A stretch of DNA of 10,854 nucleotides from Candidatus Omnitrophota bacterium (GTDB lineage Bacteria; Omnitrophota; Gorgyraeia; JABMRG01; JAFGKX01): NCBI GenBank assembly GCA_020354945.1, contig CP070655.1, positions 952,448-963,301 of the forward strand, given 5' to 3'. A program made the translations under genes and the position numbers. A model generated the notes under the pieces. The model did no database searches. It saw only the letters and a list, made by a program, of their open reading frames with translations, and was not told the DNA's origin. Positions 1,920 to 10,615 of the stretch are shown here, one piece after another. The first letter of the stretch is position 1; every line of letters starts with the position of its first letter.

Positions 1920-1965
1920 TAAATACTAAATACGGATCGGTTGAAAGGATTTGGAAGGAGCTGTT

Positions 1966-2898
1966 ATGAAAAACAAGGTATCTGTAATTGGCGCCGGAAG
2001 AGTAGGAGCCACTGCAGCCCAGTATATTGCTGAAGATGAACTGGCTGATGTGGTAATGGTAGATATTGTAGAGGGTTTGCCTCAGGGAAAATCCCTGGAT
2101 CTTCTGGAGGCCGGCCCGATTAGGGGATTTGATAGTATCCTATCAGGAAGCAACGATTATAAAGATACCGCTAATTCAGATATTGTAGTTATCGCTGCCG
2201 GGCTGGCTAGAAAACCAGGCATGAGCAGGGAAGAGCTATTAATGAAAAATTCTGAAATTATTAAATCTATTACCGACAAGGTGGTTAAGGAATCTCCCAA
2301 TTGTATTATTATAGTGGTTAGTAACCCCTTAGATGTTATGACCTATTTATGCTGGAAACTCAGCGGATTTTCACCAAAAAGGGTATTGGGCATGGCCGGC
2401 ACCTTAGACTCTGCTCGGTTCAGGGCATTTGTGGCTAAGGAATTGAATGTTTCTGTAAAAGATACCCAGGCCCTTGTATTAGGCGGGCATGGCGATTCTA
2501 TGGTTCCTTTGCCTAGATACTGCACTGTTTGCGGGATACCAATAACAGAATTAATCCCAAAAAAAAGAATAGACAGCATTGTGGAAAGGACCCGAAAGGC
2601 CGGCGGAGAGATAGTTGATTATCTTAAGACAGGGAGCGCCTACTATTCCCCCGGCGCTTGCGCAGCGGAAATGGTTGAGGTAATATTAAAAGACAAGAAA
2701 CGCCTGCTGCCATGCGCGGCATATTTAAACGGTGAATATGGGTTGAAAGACGTTTATGTAGGGGTTCCCGTAATTTTAGGCGCTTCCGGGGCAGAGAGAA
2801 TCGTAGAAGTAGACCTGACAAAAGAAGAGAAGAATGCATTACATGCCTCTGCAGAGATAGTGAAAAAGAATATAGCAAAATTAGGAGAATGTGTATGA
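1966..2898 (+). CDS. mdh: Malate dehydrogenase (LDH-like, NAD-dependent)
   Basis: Rossmann motif GAGRVG, VDIVEG, substrate loop [11 protein letters not shown] (Arg specifying malate), LDSARF and GGHGD. The start was moved from TTG 1951 to ATG 1966 because SD GAAGGAG sits at 1954-1960. Confidence 0.95.
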
Positions 2899-4139
2899 TG
2901 AAGTTTGATAAGATCCGGATTCCAAAAAAAGGTGAAAGGATAGAGGTTCGAGACAATAAACTTTCTGTGCCGGATAATCCTATTGTACCATTTATTGAAG
3001 GAGATGGAGTTGGCCCGGATATTATGAGAGCATCACGCAGGGTGTGGGACGCTGCAGTTGAGAGGGCCTATAAGGGAAAAAGGAAAATCCTCTGGTGCGA
3101 AATATATGCAGGCCAGAAAGCTAAAGGCATATACGGTGAGGTCTTACCGAAAGATACCATAAATGCCATTGGACATTTTATCGTAGCTATTAAAGGGCCT
3201 TTGATAACTCCGGTTGGCGGTGGATATAGAAGCCTCAATGTGGCTATGCGCCAGACCCTGGATCTATATGCCTGCGTAAGGCCAGTAAAATATTATTCAG
3301 GGGTGCCAAGTCCCGTAATCCACCCGGAGAAAATGGATATGGTTATAGTTAGAGAGAATACAGAGGATGTCTATGCCGGGATTGAGTGGCCGCAGGGAAG
3401 TTCTGAAGCAAAGAAGGTTATCTCGTATTTGAATAATGAATTTGGCGCAAAGATTAGAGAAGATTCCGGAATAGGAGTAAAACCTATAAGTATATACGCT
3501 ACTAAACGCCTGGTAAAAAAGGCCGTTAAGTATGCCATAGATAAAAAAAGAAAGAGTGTAACACTGGTTCATAAAGGCAATATTATGAAGTTTACCGAAG
3601 GCGCTTTCAGGGATTGGGGCTATGAGGTGGCTAAAGAAGAATTTGGCGACAAGACTATTACCGAGACGCAGCTTTGGGAAGAGTATAATGACAGGATACC
3701 TGAAGGAAAGATTCTGATTAATGATAGAATAGCCGATAGTATGTTTCAGCAGATTCTGACCAGGGCAGATGAATATGATGTTATTGCCCTGCCTAACTTA
3801 AATGGCGACTATCTCTCTGATGCCTGCGCAGCCCAGGTGGGCGGCTTGGGGATGGCTCCCGGCGGCAATATTGGAGACTTTGTAGCTCTTTTTGAAGCCT
3901 GTCATGGCGCAGCGCCTAAATATGCCAATATGGATAAGGTGAACCCAAGCGCCCTTATACTTTCCGGCGTGATGATGATGGATTATCTTGGCTGGGATGA
4001 TGCAGCGAGGCAGGTTGAGAAAGCCCTGGAGGCGGCCATAAAAGGAAAAAAGGTAACCTATGACCTTCATAGATTAATGAAAGGAGCCACTTTATTAAAA
4101 ACATCTGAATTTGCCTCAGCTGTAATTGAGAATATATAA
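2895..4139 (+). CDS. icd: NADP-dependent isocitrate dehydrogenase (E. coli-type homodimeric)
   Basis: Motifs [40 protein letters not shown] and [13 protein letters not shown] determinants are in HGAAPKY...KVNP and VTYDLHR. SD AGGAG at 2883-2887 favours ATG 2895, an ATGA overlap with the mdh stop. Confidence 0.95.
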
Positions 4140-4981
4140 TGAGAAAGATAGATACCCAAAAGATTACCGAAGTAGTTAAAAGATTATGCATGGAGGCAAA
4201 CTACTATTTAGGTGATGATATTGTGAAAGCACTCAAGAAGGCACAAAGAATAGAAGAATCTCCTATTGGCAAGGAAATTATAAAACAAATATTGGAAAAT
4301 TCTCAGATTGCCAGGAAAGAAAAACTACCAATATGCCAGGATACGGGTTTTGTGGTAGTCTTTTTAGAATTGGGGCAAAAGATAAATATTACAGGCGGCG
4401 AGCTTTATGAGGCTATAAACGAAGGGGTAAGGCAGGGATACAGGTCAGGATTTTTGCGAAACTCTATTGTTAAAGACCCTTTAAAAAGAGAGAATACCGG
4501 CGATAATACCCCGGCAGTGATTCATACTGAAATAGTAGCGGGAGATAAATTAAAGATAACGGTTGCTCCTAAGGGTTGCGGCAGTGAGAATATGAGTGAA
4601 ATTAAAATGATGAGTCCTTCGGATGGAATTTGCAGAGTAGTAGATTTTGTAGTTGATAGGGTGAATCGCTCCGGCGGAAATCCCTGTCCCCCAATTATAG
4701 TTGGGGTAGGAATTGGGGGAACATTTGAAAAATGTGCCCAGCTGGCAAAGCAGGCTTTATTAAGAACCGTAGGAATAAGGAATCCCGATTCCTTTTACGC
4801 CGATTTGGAGAAAAGGCTCCTAGAGAAGATAAATAATTTAGGCATAGGCCCGATGGGATTAGGGGGAAGAGTAACCGCCCTGGATGTGTTTGTAGAAACA
4901 TACCCTTGCCATATAGCCGGTTTGCCTGTGGCAGTGAATATCCAGTGCCACGCTGCCAGGCATAAGGAAGCAGTGATATAA
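4139..4981 (+). CDS. Class I fumarate hydratase / tartrate dehydratase family Fe-S hydro-lyase, alpha subunit
   Basis: Cluster-ligand motifs ICQDTG, NPCPP and IQCHAAR, plus KGCGSEN. TAATG overlap with icd. The mdh neighbourhood favours fumarase. Confidence 0.9.
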   Translation: MRKIDTQKITEVVKRLCMEANYYLGDDIVKALKKAQRIEESPIGKEIIKQILENSQIARKEKLPICQDTGFVVVFLELGQKINITGGELYEAINEGVRQGYRSGFLRNSIVKDPLKRENTGDNTPAVIHTEIVAGDKLKITVAPKGCGSENMSEIKMMSPSDGICRVVDFVVDRVNRSGGNPCPPIIVGVGIGGTFEKCAQLAKQALLRTVGIRNPDSFYADLEKRLLEKINNLGIGPMGLGGRVTALDVFVETYPCHIAGLPVAVNIQCHAARHKEAVI

Positions 4982-5527
4982 ATGATAAAACTTACTACGC
5001 CTGTTACTAATAATGATATAGAAAAATTAAAAATAGGAGATAATGTGCTATTAAGCGGGCTAATATACACAAGTAGAGATGCAGCCCATAAGAGATTAAA
5101 AGGACTTCTGGATAAGGGGGAAGAGTTGCCGATTGACATTAGGGGCCAGATGATATATTATGTAGGCCCGACTCCGGCAAGGCCGGGTAAGATAATCGGT
5201 TCTGCCGGCCCTACTACCAGCTACAGGATAGATCCTTATGCTCCTCCCCTTCTTGCTAAAGGCTTAAAAGGTATGATAGGAAAAGGGCCTCGCGGCGAGG
5301 AAGTAATCGAGGCGCTTAAAAGATATAAGGCTGTTTATTTTGTTGCAGTCGGCGGTGCAGGAGCTCTAATTGCTAAATGCATAAAAAAGGCAAGTATTGT
5401 TGCTTATCCGGATTTAGGCCCGGAGGCTATACGCTGTTTAGAAGTCAAGAATCTCCCTTTAATCGTAGCAAATGATTGTTACGGTCAGGATTTATTTAAG
5501 GAAGGAGTGAAAAGATACCGAAAATGA
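4982..5527 (+). CDS. Class I fumarate hydratase / tartrate dehydratase family Fe-S hydro-lyase, beta subunit
   Basis: Motifs TSRDAAHKR, GPTTSYR, MIGKG, GGAGAL and DLGPEA. It starts immediately after the alpha-subunit stop. Confidence 0.9.
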   Translation: MIKLTTPVTNNDIEKLKIGDNVLLSGLIYTSRDAAHKRLKGLLDKGEELPIDIRGQMIYYVGPTPARPGKIIGSAGPTTSYRIDPYAPPLLAKGLKGMIGKGPRGEEVIEALKRYKAVYFVAVGGAGALIAKCIKKASIVAYPDLGPEAIRCLEVKNLPLIVANDCYGQDLFKEGVKRYRK

Positions 5528-6717
5528 TGTCTTTAGCAAAAAGGGCAAAAAACATTACCGCTTCTCCTACCCTGGCCATATCAGCCAAGGCGAAGGAAAT
5601 GCGAAAAAAAGGAGTAGAGGTTATTAATTTTAGCGCAGGAGAACCGGACTTTGATACCCCTGCCTTTATCAAACAAACGGCTATCTCTGCCATAGAAGAG
5701 GGTTTTACCAAGTATACCCCGGCTTCAGGAATAAATGAATTAAAAGAAGCAGTAATAGCCAAGCTTCATAGAGATAATAACCTTGATTATAGCATCAATC
5801 AGGTGATTGTATCTTGCGGCGCAAAGCATTCTATATACAACTGTCTGCAGGCAATATGCAATCCCGGCGATGAGGTAATTATATTTTCCCCTTATTGGGT
5901 AAGTTATCCGGAAATGATAAAATTGGCAGGGGCTCAACCCATTGTTGTAAACACCAAAGAGGAGGATGGATTCCTGCCCTCGGTTTCTTCTCTGGCATCG
6001 GCTATTTCTAAAAAGAGTAAAGCTATGATTATTAACAGCCCATGCAATCCCTGCGGTTGTGTATATCCGGGGAAATTGTTAAGGGAAATATCTAAATTTG
6101 CTCTAAAGAATAATTTATTGGTAATTTCTGACGAGATATATGAGAAAATAATCTTTGATTCTAACAAGCACATTAGCATCGCTTCTTTAGGAGAAGATAT
6201 AAAAAATCGCACTCTGGTTATAAACGGGGTATCCAAGACTTATGCCATGACAGGATGGAGAATTGGTTATACGGCCGGGCCTGCTGATATTATAAAGGCC
6301 ATGTCAAATATTCAGTCGCATTCAACCTCAAACCCGAACTCTATTGCCCAAAAAGCCAGCGCAGAGGCTTTAAAGTGCGCTCAGGGAGAAGTTTCAAAAA
6401 TGGTGGCAGAGTTTGAAAGAAGAAGGAATTTTATAGTGGAAAGATTAAAAACATTTGATAGAATTAGTTTTCACAAGCCGGATGGCGCGTTTTATCTGTT
6501 TTTAAATATCGGTTCTTTTTTTGGCCAAAGGCTGAAAGCAAGAGACATTAAAAATTCTGTGGATTTCGCCGATTATTTATTAGAACAAGGGAAGGTAGCA
6601 GTAGTGCCCGGGTCTGCCTTTGGAGCAGATAGATATATCCGCATATCCTTCGCAACTTCCATAGAGGATTTAGGCAAGGGATTAGACAGGATAGAAACTG
6701 CGGTGTTTAAAAATTGA
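5524..6717 (+). CDS. aspC: PLP-dependent class I aminotransferase, probably aspartate aminotransferase (subgroup Ib)
   Basis: Motifs GEPDF, GAKHS (Lys associated with acidic substrates in subgroup Ib), NSPCNPCG, SDEIY and the PLP lysine motif SKTYAMTGWRIG. ATGA overlap with the previous gene. The start could be 5524 or 5527. Confidence 0.88.
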   Translation: MMSLAKRAKNITASPTLAISAKAKEMRKKGVEVINFSAGEPDFDTPAFIKQTAISAIEEGFTKYTPASGINELKEAVIAKLHRDNNLDYSINQVIVSCGAKHSIYNCLQAICNPGDEVIIFSPYWVSYPEMIKLAGAQPIVVNTKEEDGFLPSVSSLASAISKKSKAMIINSPCNPCGCVYPGKLLREISKFALKNNLLVISDEIYEKIIFDSNKHISIASLGEDIKNRTLVINGVSKTYAMTGWRIGYTAGPADIIKAMSNIQSHSTSNPNSIAQKASAEALKCAQGEVSKMVAEFERRRNFIVERLKTFDRISFHKPDGAFYLFLNIGSFFGQRLKARDIKNSVDFADYLLEQGKVAVVPGSAFGADRYIRISFATSIEDLGKGLDRIETAVFKN

Positions 6718-6730
6718 GAAAGGTAAGAAA

Positions 6731-8509
6731 ATGACCAAGCGCTCAAAAAAGAAAAGATATAAATTGAAAGAAGTGAAGGAGCCAAATCTATTTCGCGATA
6801 TCTTCCCATATTCTGAAGTCCCCAAGATGGTCTTTGACCATAAGACAGTACCGCAGGGCCTTCCCAGAGATATCTGGATTACATGCACTACTTTTAGAGA
6901 CGGCCAGCAGGCCAGGCCACCTTATACAGTGAAGCAAATAACAGATCTATATGAGTTTTTACATAGGCTGGGAGGGCCAAAGGGAATAATCAAACAGAGT
7001 GAGTTTTTTCTTTATAGTAAAAAGGACCGTGAGGCAGTAGAAAAATGTTTAGAAAAAGGATATCAATACCCTGAAATTACCGGTTGGATAAGAGCTAATA
7101 AAAATGATTTTCAACTGGTGAAAGAGATGGGGTTAAAGGAAACAGGAATCCTTACCTCTTGTTCTGACTACCATATTTTCCTGAAGCTAAACAAAAATAG
7201 AAAGACCGCTATGGAAGCGTATTTGGATGTGGTAGGCGCTGCGCTGGAAGGAGGAATCATACCACGCTGCCATTTAGAAGATATTACTCGGGCAGATATG
7301 CAGGGATTTGTTCTCCCCTTTGTCCAGGAACTTATGAAAATGTCAAAAGAATCCAAAATTCCCATAAAGATAAGGCTCTGCGACACGTTAGGATATGGCG
7401 ATCCTTACCTAGGAGTAACGCTTCCTCGAAGCATTCCTAAGCTGATCCATACTATTATTCATGAAGGGGGTGTCCCTAAAGAAAGATTAGAATGGCACGG
7501 GCACAATGATTTTCATAAAGTGCTTATTAATGCCTCCACAGCATGGTTGTATGGATGCGCAGCAGCCAATGGAGCACTTTTAGGATTTGGTGAACGCACC
7601 GGCAATCCCCCTATCGAAGGTTTGGCGATAGAATATATAGGTTTAAGAGGCAAAACTGACGGGATGGATACCACAGTAATTACCGAAATAGCGGAGTATT
7701 TTCAAAAAGAGATAGGTGCTGTTATTCCGGCAAATTACCCTTTTGTCGGCTCATCGTTTAATACCACCAGGGCAGGGATACATGCTGACGGGGTTTTTAA
7801 GCATGAAGAAATTTATAATATCTTTGATACCACCAGACTGCTAAACCGTCCTTTGAGAGTTACTGTTACTGACAAATCCGGCCTGGCAGGGATAGCTTAC
7901 TGGATAAATTCATATTTAGGGCTTAAAAATGAGCAGAAGATAGATAAGCGCCATCCAGGAATTGCGGCTATGGCTGAATGGGTCAAACAGCAGTATACAG
8001 AGGGAAGGACTACCAGTATTTCTGATGAAGAGATGCTGATGGAGGCGCGAAAGCATTTACCTCAGTATTTTGAATCAGACCTTGACCGTATAGAGAAGAA
8101 GGCAGAAGAGCTAGCCACTGCTCTAATTGAGGATATTAAGGATGATGAAAGGATTATATCAATGGACCCATCTACTGCTGAGCCATTCCTGGAAAGAATA
8201 GCCAGAGAAGACCCTTTTATGCAATTTCTTTACATAGTGGATACAAAAGGCAAAAAGATTACCAGGAATATTACTCAGTTAGAAGATAAGGAAGAATTTG
8301 AGAGAAAAGGCTTAAATTCAGACTTCTCTAACCGAGAATGGTTTATAGCCCCAATGAAAAATGGCAAGATTTACGTGAGTAAACTTTATACCTCTAAAAT
8401 TACAGGAAAGTTGTGCATAACGGTTTCTGCGCCTATAATAAATAAAAAAGATGAAATAGTAGGGATTTTTGGCATTGATATGAAATTTGAGGACTTAGCG
8501 AAATTATAA
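6731..8509 (+). CDS. Re-citrate synthase-like DRE-TIM metallolyase (LeuA/HMGL-like) with a C-terminal Cache/PDC-like domain
   Basis: TTFRDGQQ, TGWIRA, ETGILTSCSDYHIFLKL, RCHLEDITRAD, EWHGHNDF and GERTGN are typical of the Clostridium/Syntrophus Re-citrate synthase group. The last roughly 140 aa contain DFSNREWF...YTS..TG...ITVSAPI...IVGIFGID, a Cache-like pattern. It sits in an operon with icd and mdh. Confidence 0.85.
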   Translation: MTKRSKKKRYKLKEVKEPNLFRDIFPYSEVPKMVFDHKTVPQGLPRDIWITCTTFRDGQQARPPYTVKQITDLYEFLHRLGGPKGIIKQSEFFLYSKKDREAVEKCLEKGYQYPEITGWIRANKNDFQLVKEMGLKETGILTSCSDYHIFLKLNKNRKTAMEAYLDVVGAALEGGIIPRCHLEDITRADMQGFVLPFVQELMKMSKESKIPIKIRLCDTLGYGDPYLGVTLPRSIPKLIHTIIHEGGVPKERLEWHGHNDFHKVLINASTAWLYGCAAANGALLGFGERTGNPPIEGLAIEYIGLRGKTDGMDTTVITEIAEYFQKEIGAVIPANYPFVGSSFNTTRAGIHADGVFKHEEIYNIFDTTRLLNRPLRVTVTDKSGLAGIAYWINSYLGLKNEQKIDKRHPGIAAMAEWVKQQYTEGRTTSISDEEMLMEARKHLPQYFESDLDRIEKKAEELATALIEDIKDDERIISMDPSTAEPFLERIAREDPFMQFLYIVDTKGKKITRNITQLEDKEEFERKGLNSDFSNREWFIAPMKNGKIYVSKLYTSKITGKLCITVSAPIINKKDEIVGIFGIDMKFEDLAKL

Positions 8510-8514
8510 ACGAT

Positions 8515-9216
8515 TTGAATATCACTATAACTTATGTTAATCAATTACATAATAAAAGCCTGAAATCAGGATGGGGATTTTCCTGCCTAATCGAGTATTT
8601 AGATAAAAAAGTCCTTTTTGATACAGGCGACAGTCCTGAAAAACTTTCATTCAATTTAAGCATTTTAAATATAAATCCCAAAGATATCAACGCAGTAGTT
8701 TTATCTCACAATCACTCAGACCATACCGGGGGCCTGGAAGCTGTTATTGACAAAAATAAAAATGTTGCGCTCTATTTCCCTAAAAGCTTCCCTAAAAATT
8801 TTAGAGAAAAAATTAAAGCGATAGGAGCAAAACCTTACCCGGTAACTGAAATGGTAAACATCAGCCCGCAGATTTTTGCAGGCCCGCAGATGAACGGATT
8901 CGGGCCCAAAGAGATTCCTTTGGCACTCCAATCAGATAAGGGAACCTGTATAATTACAGGCTGCGCCCATCCCGGGATTTTAAAGATGGTCAAAACAGTT
9001 AAGGAAAAATTAAATAAGAATATCTATTTAGTTATGGGTGGTTTTCACCTTGAGTTTTTTTTAGGAACAAGGAGGATAGTGGAAGGCTTTAGAAAGATAG
9101 GAGTTGTAAAGGTTGCACCCTGCCATTGTACCGGCAAAAGGCCAATCAATCTATTTGAGGATGAATTCAAGAAAGATTTTATTAGAGTCGGAACAGGATT
9201 AAAATTGGAGGTATAA
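8515..9216 (+). CDS. MBL-fold metallo-hydrolase (COG1237 / DHPS-like family)
   Basis: Motifs WGFSCLIE, LFDTG, SHNHSDHTGG (HxHxDH), GCAHPG, GGFHL and PCHCTG. The TTG start has no clear SD, so the start is uncertain. Confidence 0.85.
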   Translation: MNITITYVNQLHNKSLKSGWGFSCLIEYLDKKVLFDTGDSPEKLSFNLSILNINPKDINAVVLSHNHSDHTGGLEAVIDKNKNVALYFPKSFPKNFREKIKAIGAKPYPVTEMVNISPQIFAGPQMNGFGPKEIPLALQSDKGTCIITGCAHPGILKMVKTVKEKLNKNIYLVMGGFHLEFFLGTRRIVEGFRKIGVVKVAPCHCTGKRPINLFEDEFKKDFIRVGTGLKLEV

Positions 9217-9448: not shown

Positions 9449-10615
9449 ATGCCCAAAGACCCTATATGCGGAATGGATGTACGCGAAACTTCCGCCCTAA
9501 AGCTAACCAAGGACGGCAAGACCAATTATTTTTGCAGTGAGCATTGTCTGAAAAAGTTTGCCAAACAGAATGGCATAAACGATAAAGAAGTAGCGACCTG
9601 TTTAGTGCAGCCAAAGACAAAATGGTACAAAAATAAGGTAATAATAATAGCTTTTCTCTTAATATTGATTTCTGTTTTATCATATATTGTGCCTATTTTA
9701 GAGCCTTTTAGAAAATCCTTACTTATGTATTTTCGCAGGATCTGGTGGGCTATTTTGCTTGGATTGGTCCTTGGCGGCATTATAGACCGTTTTATACCAC
9801 GAGAATATGTTTCCCATATTCTTGCAGGGCCCCAGAAGAAAACTATATTTTATTCTGTAATACTCGGGTTTTTTATGAGCGCATGCAGCCACGGTATTTT
9901 AGCACTTTCAATTGAATTGCACAGAAAGGGTGCATCAAACCCCGCAATAATAGCTTTTCTTTTGGCCAGCCCATGGGCGAATTTTCCCTTGACTGTAATG
10001 CTCATAGGTTTCTTTGTCCTTAAGGCATTATATATTGTAGTTTGTGCCCTGATTATTGCAATTATAACTGGTTTTATATTTCAGTTTCTTGAATCAAGGG
10101 GCCTGATAGAAATCAACAAAAATATTAAAGAAACAGCAGAAGGATTTTCTATGCTAAAAGACTTAAAAGAAAGATTCAAGTCATATAAGGCAACGCCTAA
10201 AGCAATAGCGCAAGATATAAAAGGTGTATTTTCCGGTTCAATTTCTCTGGCAAATATGGTATTGTGGTGGATATTGATAGGCATGGGTTTGGCTAGTTTA
10301 GCAGCTGCCTATATACCACAGAATATATTTCAAAATTATATGGGGCCTACAGCCTTAGGATTATTTGTAACTTTAATAGTTGCTACTATAATGGAGGTAT
10401 GCTCAGAAGGGACAGCGCCACTTGCTTTTGAGATATACAGACAGACCGCGGCATTGGGCAACGCATTTGTATTTTTAATGGCAGGCGTAGTCACAGACTA
10501 TACCGAGATAGGCCTGTTATGGCATAATGTTGGAAAAAAGACAGCAATCTGGCTGCCTGTAATTACAGTCCCGCAGGTAATAGTTTTGGGTATATTGGCA
10601 AATATAATATTTTAA
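9449..10615 (+). CDS. ArsP/DUF318-like permease with an N-terminal YHS (TRASH) metal-binding domain
   Basis: The N-terminus KDPICGMDV...YFCSEHCLKKF is a YHS signature. The body has about 8-9 TM segments in two pseudo-repeats, with ACSHG...AFLLASP and VCSEG...VFLMAG. Confidence 0.85.
   Translation: MPKDPICGMDVRETSALKLTKDGKTNYFCSEHCLKKFAKQNGINDKEVATCLVQPKTKWYKNKVIIIAFLLILISVLSYIVPILEPFRKSLLMYFRRIWWAILLGLVLGGIIDRFIPREYVSHILAGPQKKTIFYSVILGFFMSACSHGILALSIELHRKGASNPAIIAFLLASPWANFPLTVMLIGFFVLKALYIVVCALIIAIITGFIFQFLESRGLIEINKNIKETAEGFSMLKDLKERFKSYKATPKAIAQDIKGVFSGSISLANMVLWWILIGMGLASLAAAYIPQNIFQNYMGPTALGLFVTLIVATIMEVCSEGTAPLAFEIYRQTAALGNAFVFLMAGVVTDYTEIGLLWHNVGKKTAIWLPVITVPQVIVLGILANIIF

Follow-up and report, generated by a model that had tools for sequence, protein, structure and literature searches.

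A putative Re-citrate synthase of Candidatus Omnitrophota ends in a cytoplasmic Cache module with a conserved, probably ligand-sensing pocket

The gene at 6731..8509 of the analysed window, a stretch of 10,854 nucleotides from contig CP070655.1 of a Candidatus Omnitrophota bacterium (assembly GCA_020354945.1), encodes a putative Re-citrate synthase of 592 aa that carries a single Cache/PDC module at its C-terminus. All genes and protein features described below are located on the + strand. The product, as translated in the list of open reading frames, belongs to the DRE-TIM (HMGL-like) synthases and consists of three parts, namely the catalytic barrel (aa 50-322, 6878..7696; Pfam HMGL-like, E 1e-25), a helical linker equivalent to the subdomains of LeuA and HCS (aa 323-446, 7697..8068), and the Cache/PDC domain (aa 447-592, 8069..8506; with the stop codon, span 8070-8509). 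The helices of the linker are predicted, and its weak match to Pfam HCS_D2 (aa 340-369, 17.2 bits) stays under the cut-off. On balance, we favour the interpretation that this protein is the Re-citrate synthase of the cell and that its Cache module acts as a ligand-sensing allosteric domain.

The initial annotation had recognized a soluble Cache/PDC-like domain in the cytoplasmic C-terminus of the enzyme, and the fold is borne out by several comparisons. The Pfam family MCP-like_PDC_1 (PF22673) matches aa 491-590 with 58.5 bits (E 1.1e-15), which exceeds the curated gathering score of 27. The dCache_1 profile (PF02743) covers aa 447-589 with 44.9 bits, just below its cut-off of 45, and the match spans only profile positions 22-155 of 240, equivalent to one module. 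The region of about 146 aa thus has the size of one PDC module rather than that of the two tandem modules of a double Cache domain. When the C-terminal 153 aa were modelled alone with AF2, the structure was obtained with a pLDDT of 93.4 and a pTM of 0.86; it shows the PDC layout of a long N-terminal helix (module residues 11-31, about aa 450-470) and a subsequent mixed alpha/beta core. A Foldseek search with this model placed KinD on top (E 5e-9), followed by Tlp3, DctB, CitA, DcuS and PctA. In the VIA comparison the Z scores were 15.2 for KinD, 13.3 for DctB, 13.2 for CitA and 13.1 for Tlp3, with WalK also in the range from 15.2 to 13. The module-alone model, the Foldseek E-value and the Z score of 15.2 place the Cache match beyond chance. 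Matches of the module in the ESM Atlas were confined to fragment or PDC-sensor clusters. The prediction of a homodimer from two copies of the isolated module gave a score of 0.01 (mark 0.42), a value that says nothing either way.

In prokaryotes, Cache domains are regarded as the principal sensors on the outside of the cell, usually inserted between membrane helices, whereas the module investigated here terminates a soluble enzyme. No membrane segment was detected in the 592 aa, the maximal Kyte-Doolittle mean over 19 residues being 1.07 compared with the customary value of about 1.6, and the N-terminus of the synthase is strongly basic and devoid of a hydrophobic core. Because the protein lacks a hydrophobic segment, the module is located in the cytoplasm. 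The best structural and sequence match, KinD of Bacillus subtilis (PDB 4jgo/4jgp, pyruvate-bound; 142 aligned residues in VIA, rmsd 3.9; profile E 3.8e-11), is by contrast an extracytoplasmic double Cache domain on a histidine kinase. A parallel in terms of architecture is YkuI of the same species (PDB 2bas), which is likewise cytoplasmic and combines an enzyme-like (EAL) domain with a C-terminal Cache/PAS-like module; its N-terminal domain is unrelated and the match is weaker (VIA Z 10.7; Pfam YkuI_C 17.6 bits, under the cut-off of 26).

The module contains a conserved set of residues. Its N-terminal half comprises F532-x-x-R535-x-W537 followed by F538 (8324..8341), the C-terminal half the loop Y553-x-S555-x-x-T558 together with the strand C562-x-T564-x-S566 (8387..8422) and D583 (8477..8479). 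The R-x-W element (R535-E-W537), a Tyr 16 residues behind the Trp and an Asp 30 residues behind this Tyr are found exactly where the initial annotation had placed them. R535, W537 and F538 as well as the complete loop and strand motifs are unchanged in 121 close homologues, and D583 is present in 120 of them, the remaining one having a gap. In 41 diverse Cache-bearing enzymes (“long forms”), W537, F538 and D583 are found without exception and R535 in 38; the residues of the predicted pocket are fixed over a range of 33-64% module identity. The alternating pattern of Y553, S555 and T558 and of C562, T564 and S566 suggests that these residues line the floor of the predicted pocket.

A comparison with PctA provides an indication of what this pocket may bind. 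R535, W537, Y553 and D583 align with R126, W128, Y144 and D173 of PctA, which leaves only one of the five AA_motif positions unmatched. In Gumerov et al. [quoted passage not shown] The spacing in the synthase falls within this published range. The first residue of the motif, Y121, aligns with Ser530, and the AA_motif is therefore incomplete, in agreement with the first Tyr having been reported as absent; relatives have Asp, Glu, Thr or Ser at the corresponding position, modules of the MCP type Lys or Arg. The similarity to the dCache_1AA sensors PctA, Tlp3 and Mlp37 thus comprises four motif positions and the fold of their membrane-distal module, but these sensors have two modules, flanking membrane helices and Y121. 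We infer that the pocket, with the general form F/W-x-x-R-x-W-F ... Y-x-S-x-x-T ... C-x-T-x-S ... D, would accommodate a small intracellular metabolite that carries an amino group in addition to a carboxylate. Glutamate, the end product of the pathway, and aspartate would be the leading candidates, and the module is probably a ligand-sensing allosteric domain for such an amino-acid-like compound.

The similarity to KinD raises the alternative of a ligand that is a carboxylic acid but lacks an amino group (pyruvate, oxaloacetate, 2-oxoglutarate or citrate, for example); the module would then tune the enzyme to the level of its substrate or product. The known signals are pyruvate for KinD, C4-dicarboxylates for DctB and citrate for CitA; KinD ranks first by profile, Foldseek and VIA, with DctB and CitA next at Z scores of 13. 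Moreover, KinD has the Y-x-S-x-x-T motif, and its R131, the residue that is altered in the R131A entries, aligns with R535; in place of W537 it has a Phe. However, the pyruvate-binding KinD has an Ala at the position of D583, the counterpart of PctA D173 that is retained in all 41 diverse long forms and in 67 of 68 MCP-type modules, and Y553 corresponds to the amino-binding Y144 of PctA. We hence regard a ligand without an amino group as unlikely and prefer an amino-acid-like one.

The nearest relatives of the module outside the enzymes are chemoreceptors whose cytoplasmic C-terminus is formed by this module. Among the 150 matches listed, 83 were longer, and 68 of these, all ending with the module, belong to the MCPsignal proteins; 45 of the 68 have no hydrophobic segment. 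Examples are WP_173085831.1 of Fundidesulfovibrio magnetotacticus and proteins from MAGs of Deferribacterales and Desulfovibrio. Their modules belong to the same subfamily as that of the enzyme (mostly 25-35% identity, up to 42%), are attached via the N-terminal helix and have a nearly identical pocket, with R535 in 65, W537, T564 and D583 in 67 each, and Y553, S555 and C562 in all 68 proteins. Differences pertain to the output, which is an MCP signalling hairpin, and to position 532, where the receptors have a Trp and the enzyme a Phe. None of the open-access papers and bioRxiv preprints listed for cytoplasmic chemoreceptors deals with this module, as judged from titles and the first lines of the abstracts. 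The co-option of a chemoreceptor module that had been proposed in the initial annotation is consistent with this relationship, but its derivation from an extracytoplasmic sensor is not, since the module of the chemoreceptors is already cytoplasmic and C-terminal. It seems to represent a subfamily of its own among the intracellular Cache sensors, which would also serve as the C-terminal input of soluble or hairpin-anchored chemoreceptors.

The fusion of the synthase with a Cache module is present in thousands of database sequences, and all carriers seen are anaerobes. The 120 best homologues have a length of 582-613 aa and all contain PF00682, PF02743 and PF22673. Among the 80 best loci at the species level, 41 have a long form; they represent at least eight phyla and include Thermodesulfobacteriota/Syntrophales, which substantiates the earlier supposition that the fusion may not be unique and occurs in deltaproteobacteria. 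The other 39 loci, among them the whole Bacillota clade, harbor enzymes without the module (“short forms”); those of the clostridial type end at about aa 435-450. In the tree the short forms are interleaved with the long ones, which rules out a single clade of Cache-bearing enzymes; in contrast, a single, well-supported branch separates the enzyme-borne Cache modules from the MCP-borne ones. A separate Cache ORF, as expected for a split form, was absent from the fetched flanks of all 39 loci with a short form. In the database, four short proteins (154-162 aa) start with Met and span the module; they may be stand-alone forms or fragments. Moreover, one lentisphaerial enzyme of 556 aa (locus L036), which was counted as short, is nested within the clade of long forms and retains about 50 residues of the module helix; it looks like a case of recent decay of the module. 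No publication on a fusion of citrate synthase and Cache was found in the open-access literature or on bioRxiv.

Given that 39 of the 80 loci lack the module, it is dispensable for catalysis and may matter little. The scattered distribution would also be compatible with a module that binds no ligand at all and, having been inherited from a sensor, now serves in oligomerisation or stabilisation, all the more as the C-terminal domain of LeuA also dimerises, as its Pfam name indicates. A mere scaffold is nevertheless distinctly unlikely, considering that the residues of the predicted pocket, beyond those of the core, are fixed over the entire range of module identity and that the same pocket is found in chemoreceptors, where the module can only serve as an input. 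The conservation of the pocket rather argues for the sensory role favoured above.

The assignment of the catalytic part is based on its motifs, its genomic context and its phylogenetic position. The motifs R56-D57 and E254-W-H256-G-H258-N-D, presumably involved in the binding of metal and substrate by analogy with the structures of LeuA and HCS, are unchanged in an alignment of 67 homologues, so that R56, D57, H256 and H258 of the HMGL-like domain are invariant. The gene is the last one of an operon with malate dehydrogenase (mdh, 1951-2898), isocitrate dehydrogenase (icd, 2889-4139), the alpha and beta subunits of fumarate hydratase (4139-4981 and 4982-5527), and aspartate aminotransferase (aspC, 5524-6717), all assigned with Pfam and NCBIfam. 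The genes from mdh to aspC (1951..6717) have the same orientation as the synthase gene and are tightly spaced or overlapping; a terminator-like hairpin (1791-1817) and a promoter-like site (1892-1919) are located 5' of mdh. The gene of the isocitrate dehydrogenase adjoins the homologue in 15 of the 80 loci. A Si-citrate synthase (PF00285) was not detected in the single-contig genome of 1.14 Mb, which is 89% complete, whereas the control gave a signal in 13 of 14 genomes. LeuA_dimer (PF08502) has no Pfam match in the synthase, but is present together with HCS_D2 in all three other HMGL-like proteins of the genome, in line with the earlier statement that the related LeuA and CimA use another C-terminal domain. 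The operon from mdh to aspC, the lack of a Si-type enzyme and the LeuA_dimer-containing paralogues indicate that the gene most likely encodes a Re-citrate synthase with a presumed Re stereochemistry.

Re-citrate synthases (EC 2.3.3.3) have reportedly been characterised in Clostridium kluyveri and Syntrophus aciditrophicus (Li et al. 2007; Kim et al. 2013, as cited in PMC12016533 and PMC8027424). The Omnitrophota enzyme groups with short forms of the clostridial type and with long forms of Syntrophales in a single clade, and its catalytic part has 58-67% identity with the short forms of Bacillota, which possess the same DRE-TIM/HMGL-like domain but no Cache module. For the enzyme of a Syntrophus sp., 119 of the 120 best relatives showed a Cache match in Pfam, and the characterised synthase of S. 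aciditrophicus is for this reason probably a long form, too. None of the NCBIfam models names the synthase, as all 19 listed families score far under their cut-offs. The best match is the homocitrate synthase NifV (TIGR02660, 131 bits), which might be taken as evidence for a homocitrate- or citramalate-like synthase with a module that senses the product of the respective pathway. We give this alternative little credence, because the NifV match is far below the cut-off of 462.9, the gene resides in a TCA operon of a genome in which no other citrate synthase was found, the three paralogues cover the LeuA/CimA-type roles, and the enzyme groups with short forms of the Clostridia type, with some members of the clade, including long forms, being named “citrate (Re)-synthase” by JGI. 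A redox or thiol sensor based on C562, linking enzyme activity and taxis to oxygen or the redox state, would agree with the oxygen sensitivity of Re-citrate synthases, with the anaerobic lifestyle of all carriers seen and with the presence of this Cys in all 121 close homologues and all 68 MCP-type modules, but it is highly improbable, since seven of the 41 diverse long forms have Ile, Ala, Thr or Val instead of C562 whereas R, W, S, T and D are retained, and since a lone buried Cys in a strand corresponds to no known redox motif.

The favoured Re-citrate synthase with a sensory module can be outlined as follows. The protein would be a Claisen condensase akin to the synthases of homocitrate and isopropylmalate; it would condense acetyl-CoA and oxaloacetate and thus head the branch that leads to 2-oxoglutarate and glutamate. 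LeuA and CimA belong to the same catalytic superfamily and likewise consist of a barrel, a helical linker and a C-terminal accessory domain, which is, however, LeuA_dimer instead of Cache/PDC, and they are subject to feedback by the end-product amino acid. More generally, the related synthases that catalyse the entry step of Leu, Ile and Lys biosynthesis are each inhibited by the amino acid in which the pathway ends. In the synthase of Omnitrophota the Cache module would take the place of LeuA_dimer and be joined to the enzyme through its long N-terminal helix. Occupancy of the pocket may then be relayed along this helix and across the linker until it reaches the catalytic dimer, where feedback inhibition would be the most likely effect. 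The full-length AF2 model is poor in the barrel and the linker (pLDDT 67.7, pTM 0.46; pLDDT below 50 for aa 324-376), so a path between the domains cannot be traced in it. The signalling of dCache_1AA sensors, according to Gumerov et al. 2022 (PMC8915833), proceeds via the C-terminal transmembrane helix, whereas the output of the enzyme must exit by the N-terminal helix.

The finding places a Cache domain, welded to an enzyme of central metabolism, inside the cell in at least eight phyla of anaerobes. The Re-type citrate synthase represents the entry to glutamate in many strict anaerobes, syntrophs and uncultured lineages, and if the module binds a metabolite, it would provide a handle on the regulation of this step. 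It would also imply that allosteric feedback arose more than once among DRE-TIM enzymes, on the basis of unrelated folds, and would predict the signal that is read by the cytoplasmic chemoreceptors with the same pocket. [quoted passage not shown] Such a shared sensor would be the first Cache domain to control a metabolic enzyme allosterically, and the end-product feedback of LeuA, CimA and homocitrate synthase would thereby have been reinvented independently of the fold.

Two observations concern the surroundings and the naming of the gene. A gene for an MBL-fold hydrolase (8515..9216; Pfam Lactamase_B) begins 5 nt past the stop codon of the synthase, and it adjoins the homologue in none of the 80 related loci. 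Many enzymes of this kind are labelled “histone-lysine N-methyltransferase” in NCBI records, a designation that hides a citrate synthase from metabolic reconstructions.

The open reading frame at positions 6731-8509 of the window, located within a series of genes on the plus strand, codes for a protein of 592 aa. Its HMGL-like DRE-TIM barrel (aa 50-322; Pfam E 1e-25) is complemented by a C-terminal match to MCP-like_PDC_1 (PF22673; aa 491-590; 58.5 bits, cut-off 27), the only one in the genome, and by a match to dCache_1 (aa 447-589) that reaches 44.9 bits against a cut-off of 45 and spans only profile positions 22-155 of 240. The initial annotation had proposed a Cache/PDC-like domain at the C-terminus of a DRE-TIM enzyme, and this assignment is borne out by Pfam, AlphaFold2 and Foldseek; the respective nucleotides 8070-8509 cover aa 447-592 and the stop codon. 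The maximal 19-residue hydropathy mean of the protein is 1.07 and its N-terminus is basic, thus indicating the lack of a membrane segment and of a signal-peptide-like core, in agreement with the original description. The full-length AlphaFold2 model (67 homologues) is mediocre (pLDDT 67.7, pTM 0.46; block means of 74-92 for residues 441-580). The last 153 residues modelled alone (57 short relatives) reach a pLDDT of 93.4 and a pTM of 0.86, and the model starts with a long N-terminal helix that leads into an alpha/beta core. The best Foldseek match in the PDB is the sensor domain of the sporulation kinase KinD (E 5e-9 to 2e-8, TM 0.62-0.66), with Tlp3, DctB, CitA, DcuS, PctA/PctC and the YkuI C-terminal domain next in rank. 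KinD (Z 15.2, 142 residues, rmsd 3.9) also leads in an independent all-against-all structure comparison, ahead of WalK (Z 14.2), DctB (13.3), CitA (13.2) and Tlp3 (13.1). The predicted structure identifies aa 447-592 as a single Cache/PDC module rather than a double Cache.

The synthase gene is preceded on the plus strand by tightly spaced or overlapping genes for malate dehydrogenase, isocitrate dehydrogenase, two fumarate hydratase subunits and aspartate aminotransferase, with a terminator-like hairpin and a promoter-like site immediately ahead of mdh. The genome, a single contig of 1.14 Mb with 89% completeness, contains no match to the Si-citrate synthase family PF00285, which is detected in 13 of 14 control genomes. 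Three of its four HMGL-like genes exhibit the ordinary LeuA/CimA layout (HMGL-like, HCS_D2 and LeuA_dimer), the fourth being the synthase gene. Relatives without the module (short forms) from Lachnospiraceae, Clostridium, Peptococcaceae and Paenibacillus share 58-67% identity over the catalytic part, some relatives with the module (long forms) bear the JGI label "citrate (Re)-synthase", and icd adjoins the homologue in 15 of the 80 best loci (five of the 41 with a long form and ten of the 39 with a short form). Together these observations make it highly probable that the gene encodes the Re-type citrate synthase of the cell, with a presumed stereochemistry and a presumed direct link to the assayed enzyme. 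The Re-citrate synthases of C. kluyveri and S. aciditrophicus have reportedly been characterised in earlier papers. None of the NCBIfam models claims the protein; the best one is NifV with 131 bits versus a cut-off of 462.9. Neighbouring reading frames overlap at the start codons of icd (10 nt with mdh, 2889-2898), fumA (1 nt with icd, 4139) and aspC (4 nt with fumB, 5524-5527), which is consistent with translational coupling across the operon. The genome lacks a match to a long aconitase and harbors two aconitase-family large-subunit genes of LeuC/homoaconitase size (~414-439 aa; G000:C1:451188-452393 and 921346-922341), one of which presumably serves citrate isomerisation.

A word-indexed search revealed at least 7,998 relatives of the enzyme, and the best 120 of them are all 582-613 aa long and all combine PF00682, PF02743 and PF22673. 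With each species represented by a single genome, a relative is encoded at 595 of the 600 pattern matches, of which the top 80 loci were retained. The module HMM matches in frame with the synthase in 41 of these loci and in no frame of the fetched flanks of the other 39. The 41 long forms are found in Omnitrophota, Nitrospirota, Thermodesulfobacteriota (Syntrophales, Desulfobacterales and others), Armatimonadota, Lentisphaerota, Elusimicrobiota, Spirochaetota and Auribacterota, the 39 short forms in Bacillota (a clade of 28 rows), Firestonebacteria, Binatota, Victivallis and also in Omnitrophota, Armatimonadota and Auribacterota. Eight of 201 sampled Omnitrophota genomes harbor an orthologue (E <= 1e-60), three of them, including that of the window, as long and five as short form. 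For a Syntrophus sp. enzyme, 119 of its 120 top-ranking relatives show a Cache Pfam match. Given the 41 loci in many phyla and the Syntrophus sp. relatives, the fusion is widespread, not limited to this genome and already visible in database domain annotations; the initial annotation had rightly pointed to similar long forms in deltaproteobacteria. Many long forms (P0013, P0016, P0019, P0021, P0026, P0039, P0073 and others, P0279, and many of the relatives of the Syntrophus sp. enzyme) are named "histone-lysine N-methyltransferase" at NCBI and one record reads "triose-phosphate isomerase". The domain content fits neither name, and both look like propagated misannotations that hide a citrate synthase. 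Eight long forms designated as Syntrophales or "deltaproteobacteria" in their record titles (loci L019, L020, L022, L023, L024, L033, L042 and L046) share a conserved Glu/Ala/Lys-rich tail of ~27 residues behind the module, with a Trp-containing end motif in six of them; those of other lineages have short acidic tails. Four database proteins of 154-162 aa (P0124, P0129, P0131, P0134) start with Met and cover the complete module, N-terminal helix included; these could be either free-standing Cache proteins or fragments from gene calling.

Long and short forms are interleaved in a phylogeny built from the catalytic columns alone (84 rows and 401 columns; quick LG+G4; root placed on the three paralogues), which takes seven to eight state changes, at least four of them forced by well-supported branches. 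A single clade of all long forms, a group named after the tree had been seen, was rejected by the AU test (delta lnL 307.5, p 4e-38). In the module tree (134 columns, weak inner forks) one branch with an SH-aLRT of 99 separates all 42 enzyme-borne from 67 chemoreceptor-borne modules. Most simply, the module was fused once and thereafter repeatedly lost or laterally exchanged, with a tentative distinction between gain and loss owing to an ambiguous root. A Lentisphaeria orthologue of 556 aa (L036:5944-7614) is nested within a long-form clade and retains the start of the module's helix, but no Cache match was found in any frame, which looks like a recent decay of the module.

With the 153-residue module as query, a full HMMER scan yielded 530 hits at E <= 1e-3 among 1.84 billion cluster representatives. 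The Pfam scan covered the 83 hits of at least 240 aa among 150 listed ones. MCPsignal proteins account for 68 of the 83 and carry the module at the extreme C-terminus behind the signalling hairpin, for example in Fundidesulfovibrio magnetotacticus, Desulfovibrio and Deferribacterales. The remaining ones are three HMGL-like fragments or long forms, nine proteins with Cache families only, one with Fer4_20 plus the module and two without family. A hydrophobic segment is absent in 45 of the 68 MCPsignal proteins, 21 have hydrophobic stretches outside the last 250 residues (mostly one to three within the first ~50), and in two the sole stretch lies inside the last 250 residues, with positions taken in the module's own strand. 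Judging from this placement, the module is already an intracellular C-terminal sensor in the chemoreceptors. The proposed co-option of a chemoreceptor module gains comparative support from these nearest relatives and is refined in that the donor was not extracytoplasmic. The pocket is nearly fixed in this chemoreceptor family with a single Cache module behind the MCP signalling domain (n=68, a subset of P0156-P0271), of which we know no characterised member. The Fer4_20 protein (P0128, 241 aa), whose additional domain occurs in glutamate synthase small-chain-like proteins, is 62% identical over module residues 47-153; it is a metagenomic singleton on a 2.5-kb contig and may be a fragment or chimera.

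Pocket residues were compared in three sets, namely 121 close homologues that are 61-95% identical, 41 diverse long forms whose modules share 33-64% identity, and 68 chemoreceptor modules. R535, W537, F538, Y553, S555, T558, C562, T564 and S566 are invariant in the close homologues, and D583 is present in 120 of 121, with one gap. Among the diverse long forms W537, F538, S555, T564 and D583 are conserved in 41/41, T558 in 40, R535 in 38, S566 in 36, Y553 in 35 and C562 in 34. The chemoreceptors share Y553, S555 and C562 in 68/68, W537, T564 and D583 in 67, R535 in 65, F538 in 57 and S566 in 50 cases, and have Thr (47) or Ser (20) at position 558. Position 532 is Trp in 64/68 chemoreceptor modules and Phe in the close enzyme homologues. 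The predicted pocket is far better conserved than the remainder of the module. C562, T564 and S566 alternate on one strand and should therefore face the same side of the sheet, which we infer to be the pocket floor.

The initial annotation had placed the module near the dCache_1 amino-acid motif with the first Tyr missing, and its residues R535-E-W537, Y553 and D583 are all in place. In the comparison of the module profile with PDB sequences, R535, W537, F538, Y553 and D583 align with PctA R126, W128, Y129, Y144 and D173, and PctA Y121 with Ser530, so that the likeness holds and the motif is incomplete. R535 also aligns with KinD R131, the residue altered in the R131A entries. According to Gumerov et al. 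[quoted passage not shown] The module has four of these five positions at the right spacing; the motif itself was defined on double-module extracellular domains. Defining features of dCache_1 and dCache_1AA were tested and are lacking, hence the module belongs to neither family; it may nevertheless work like an amino-acid-sensing Cache.

The sensor fold of this soluble enzyme occupies the slot where its paralogues have an allosteric domain, and the same pocket is the sole input domain of cytoplasmic chemoreceptors. Together with the pocket conservation this suggests that the module would bind an intracellular metabolite and modulate the synthase, and a ligand-sensing regulatory role is accordingly rated as probable. 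The related synthases at the head of Leu, Ile and Lys biosynthesis are subject to inhibition by their own end products, the product of this branch would be 2-oxoglutarate and hence glutamate, and the gene directly upstream encodes an aspartate aminotransferase. Glutamate and aspartate are thus the leading candidates, with inhibition as the likeliest sign. An amino-acid-like ligand is a tentative assignment, towards which the four motif positions lean together with the difference to pyruvate-binding KinD, which has Ala instead of Asp at the position of D583. A plain carboxylate, such as the pyruvate bound by KinD, is rather unlikely. A purely structural module would match the common short forms that do without it, and is improbable given the conservation of its pocket. 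A thiol or redox role of Cys562, the residue fixed in all chemoreceptor modules and replaced in seven of the 41 diverse long forms, is very improbable. Regarding signal transfer, PMC8915833 describes the canonical exit via a transmembrane helix C-terminal to the Cache domain. The C-terminus of the long forms is free or has a short acidic tail, so that a signal would have to reach the barrel by way of the N-terminal helix (~aa 450-470) and then the helical linker (aa 323-446); the chemoreceptors attach the module in the same way via its N-terminal helix.

The enzyme family, the Cache fold and their combination are all present in public databases, and a search of open-access papers and bioRxiv retrieved none on the synthase-Cache combination or on cytoplasmic Cache modules of enzymes. 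A DRE-TIM synthase with a Cache module as accessory domain is a clear exception to the view of Cache as an "extracellular sensor", and one that can be tested. In its predicted role the fusion would be relevant to how a central pathway is controlled in many anaerobes.

An MBL-fold hydrolase gene (8515-9216) starts 5 nt past the stop codon of the synthase gene; none of the 80 related loci has such a gene beside the homologue, thus the pairing is local. The window also contains a SAM methyltransferase with a Cys-rich N-terminus (CC-x-x-C-x-x-C; 397-1155), which we take to resemble arsenite methyltransferases, and an ArsP_1-family permease fused to an N-terminal YHS metal-binding domain (9449-10615).
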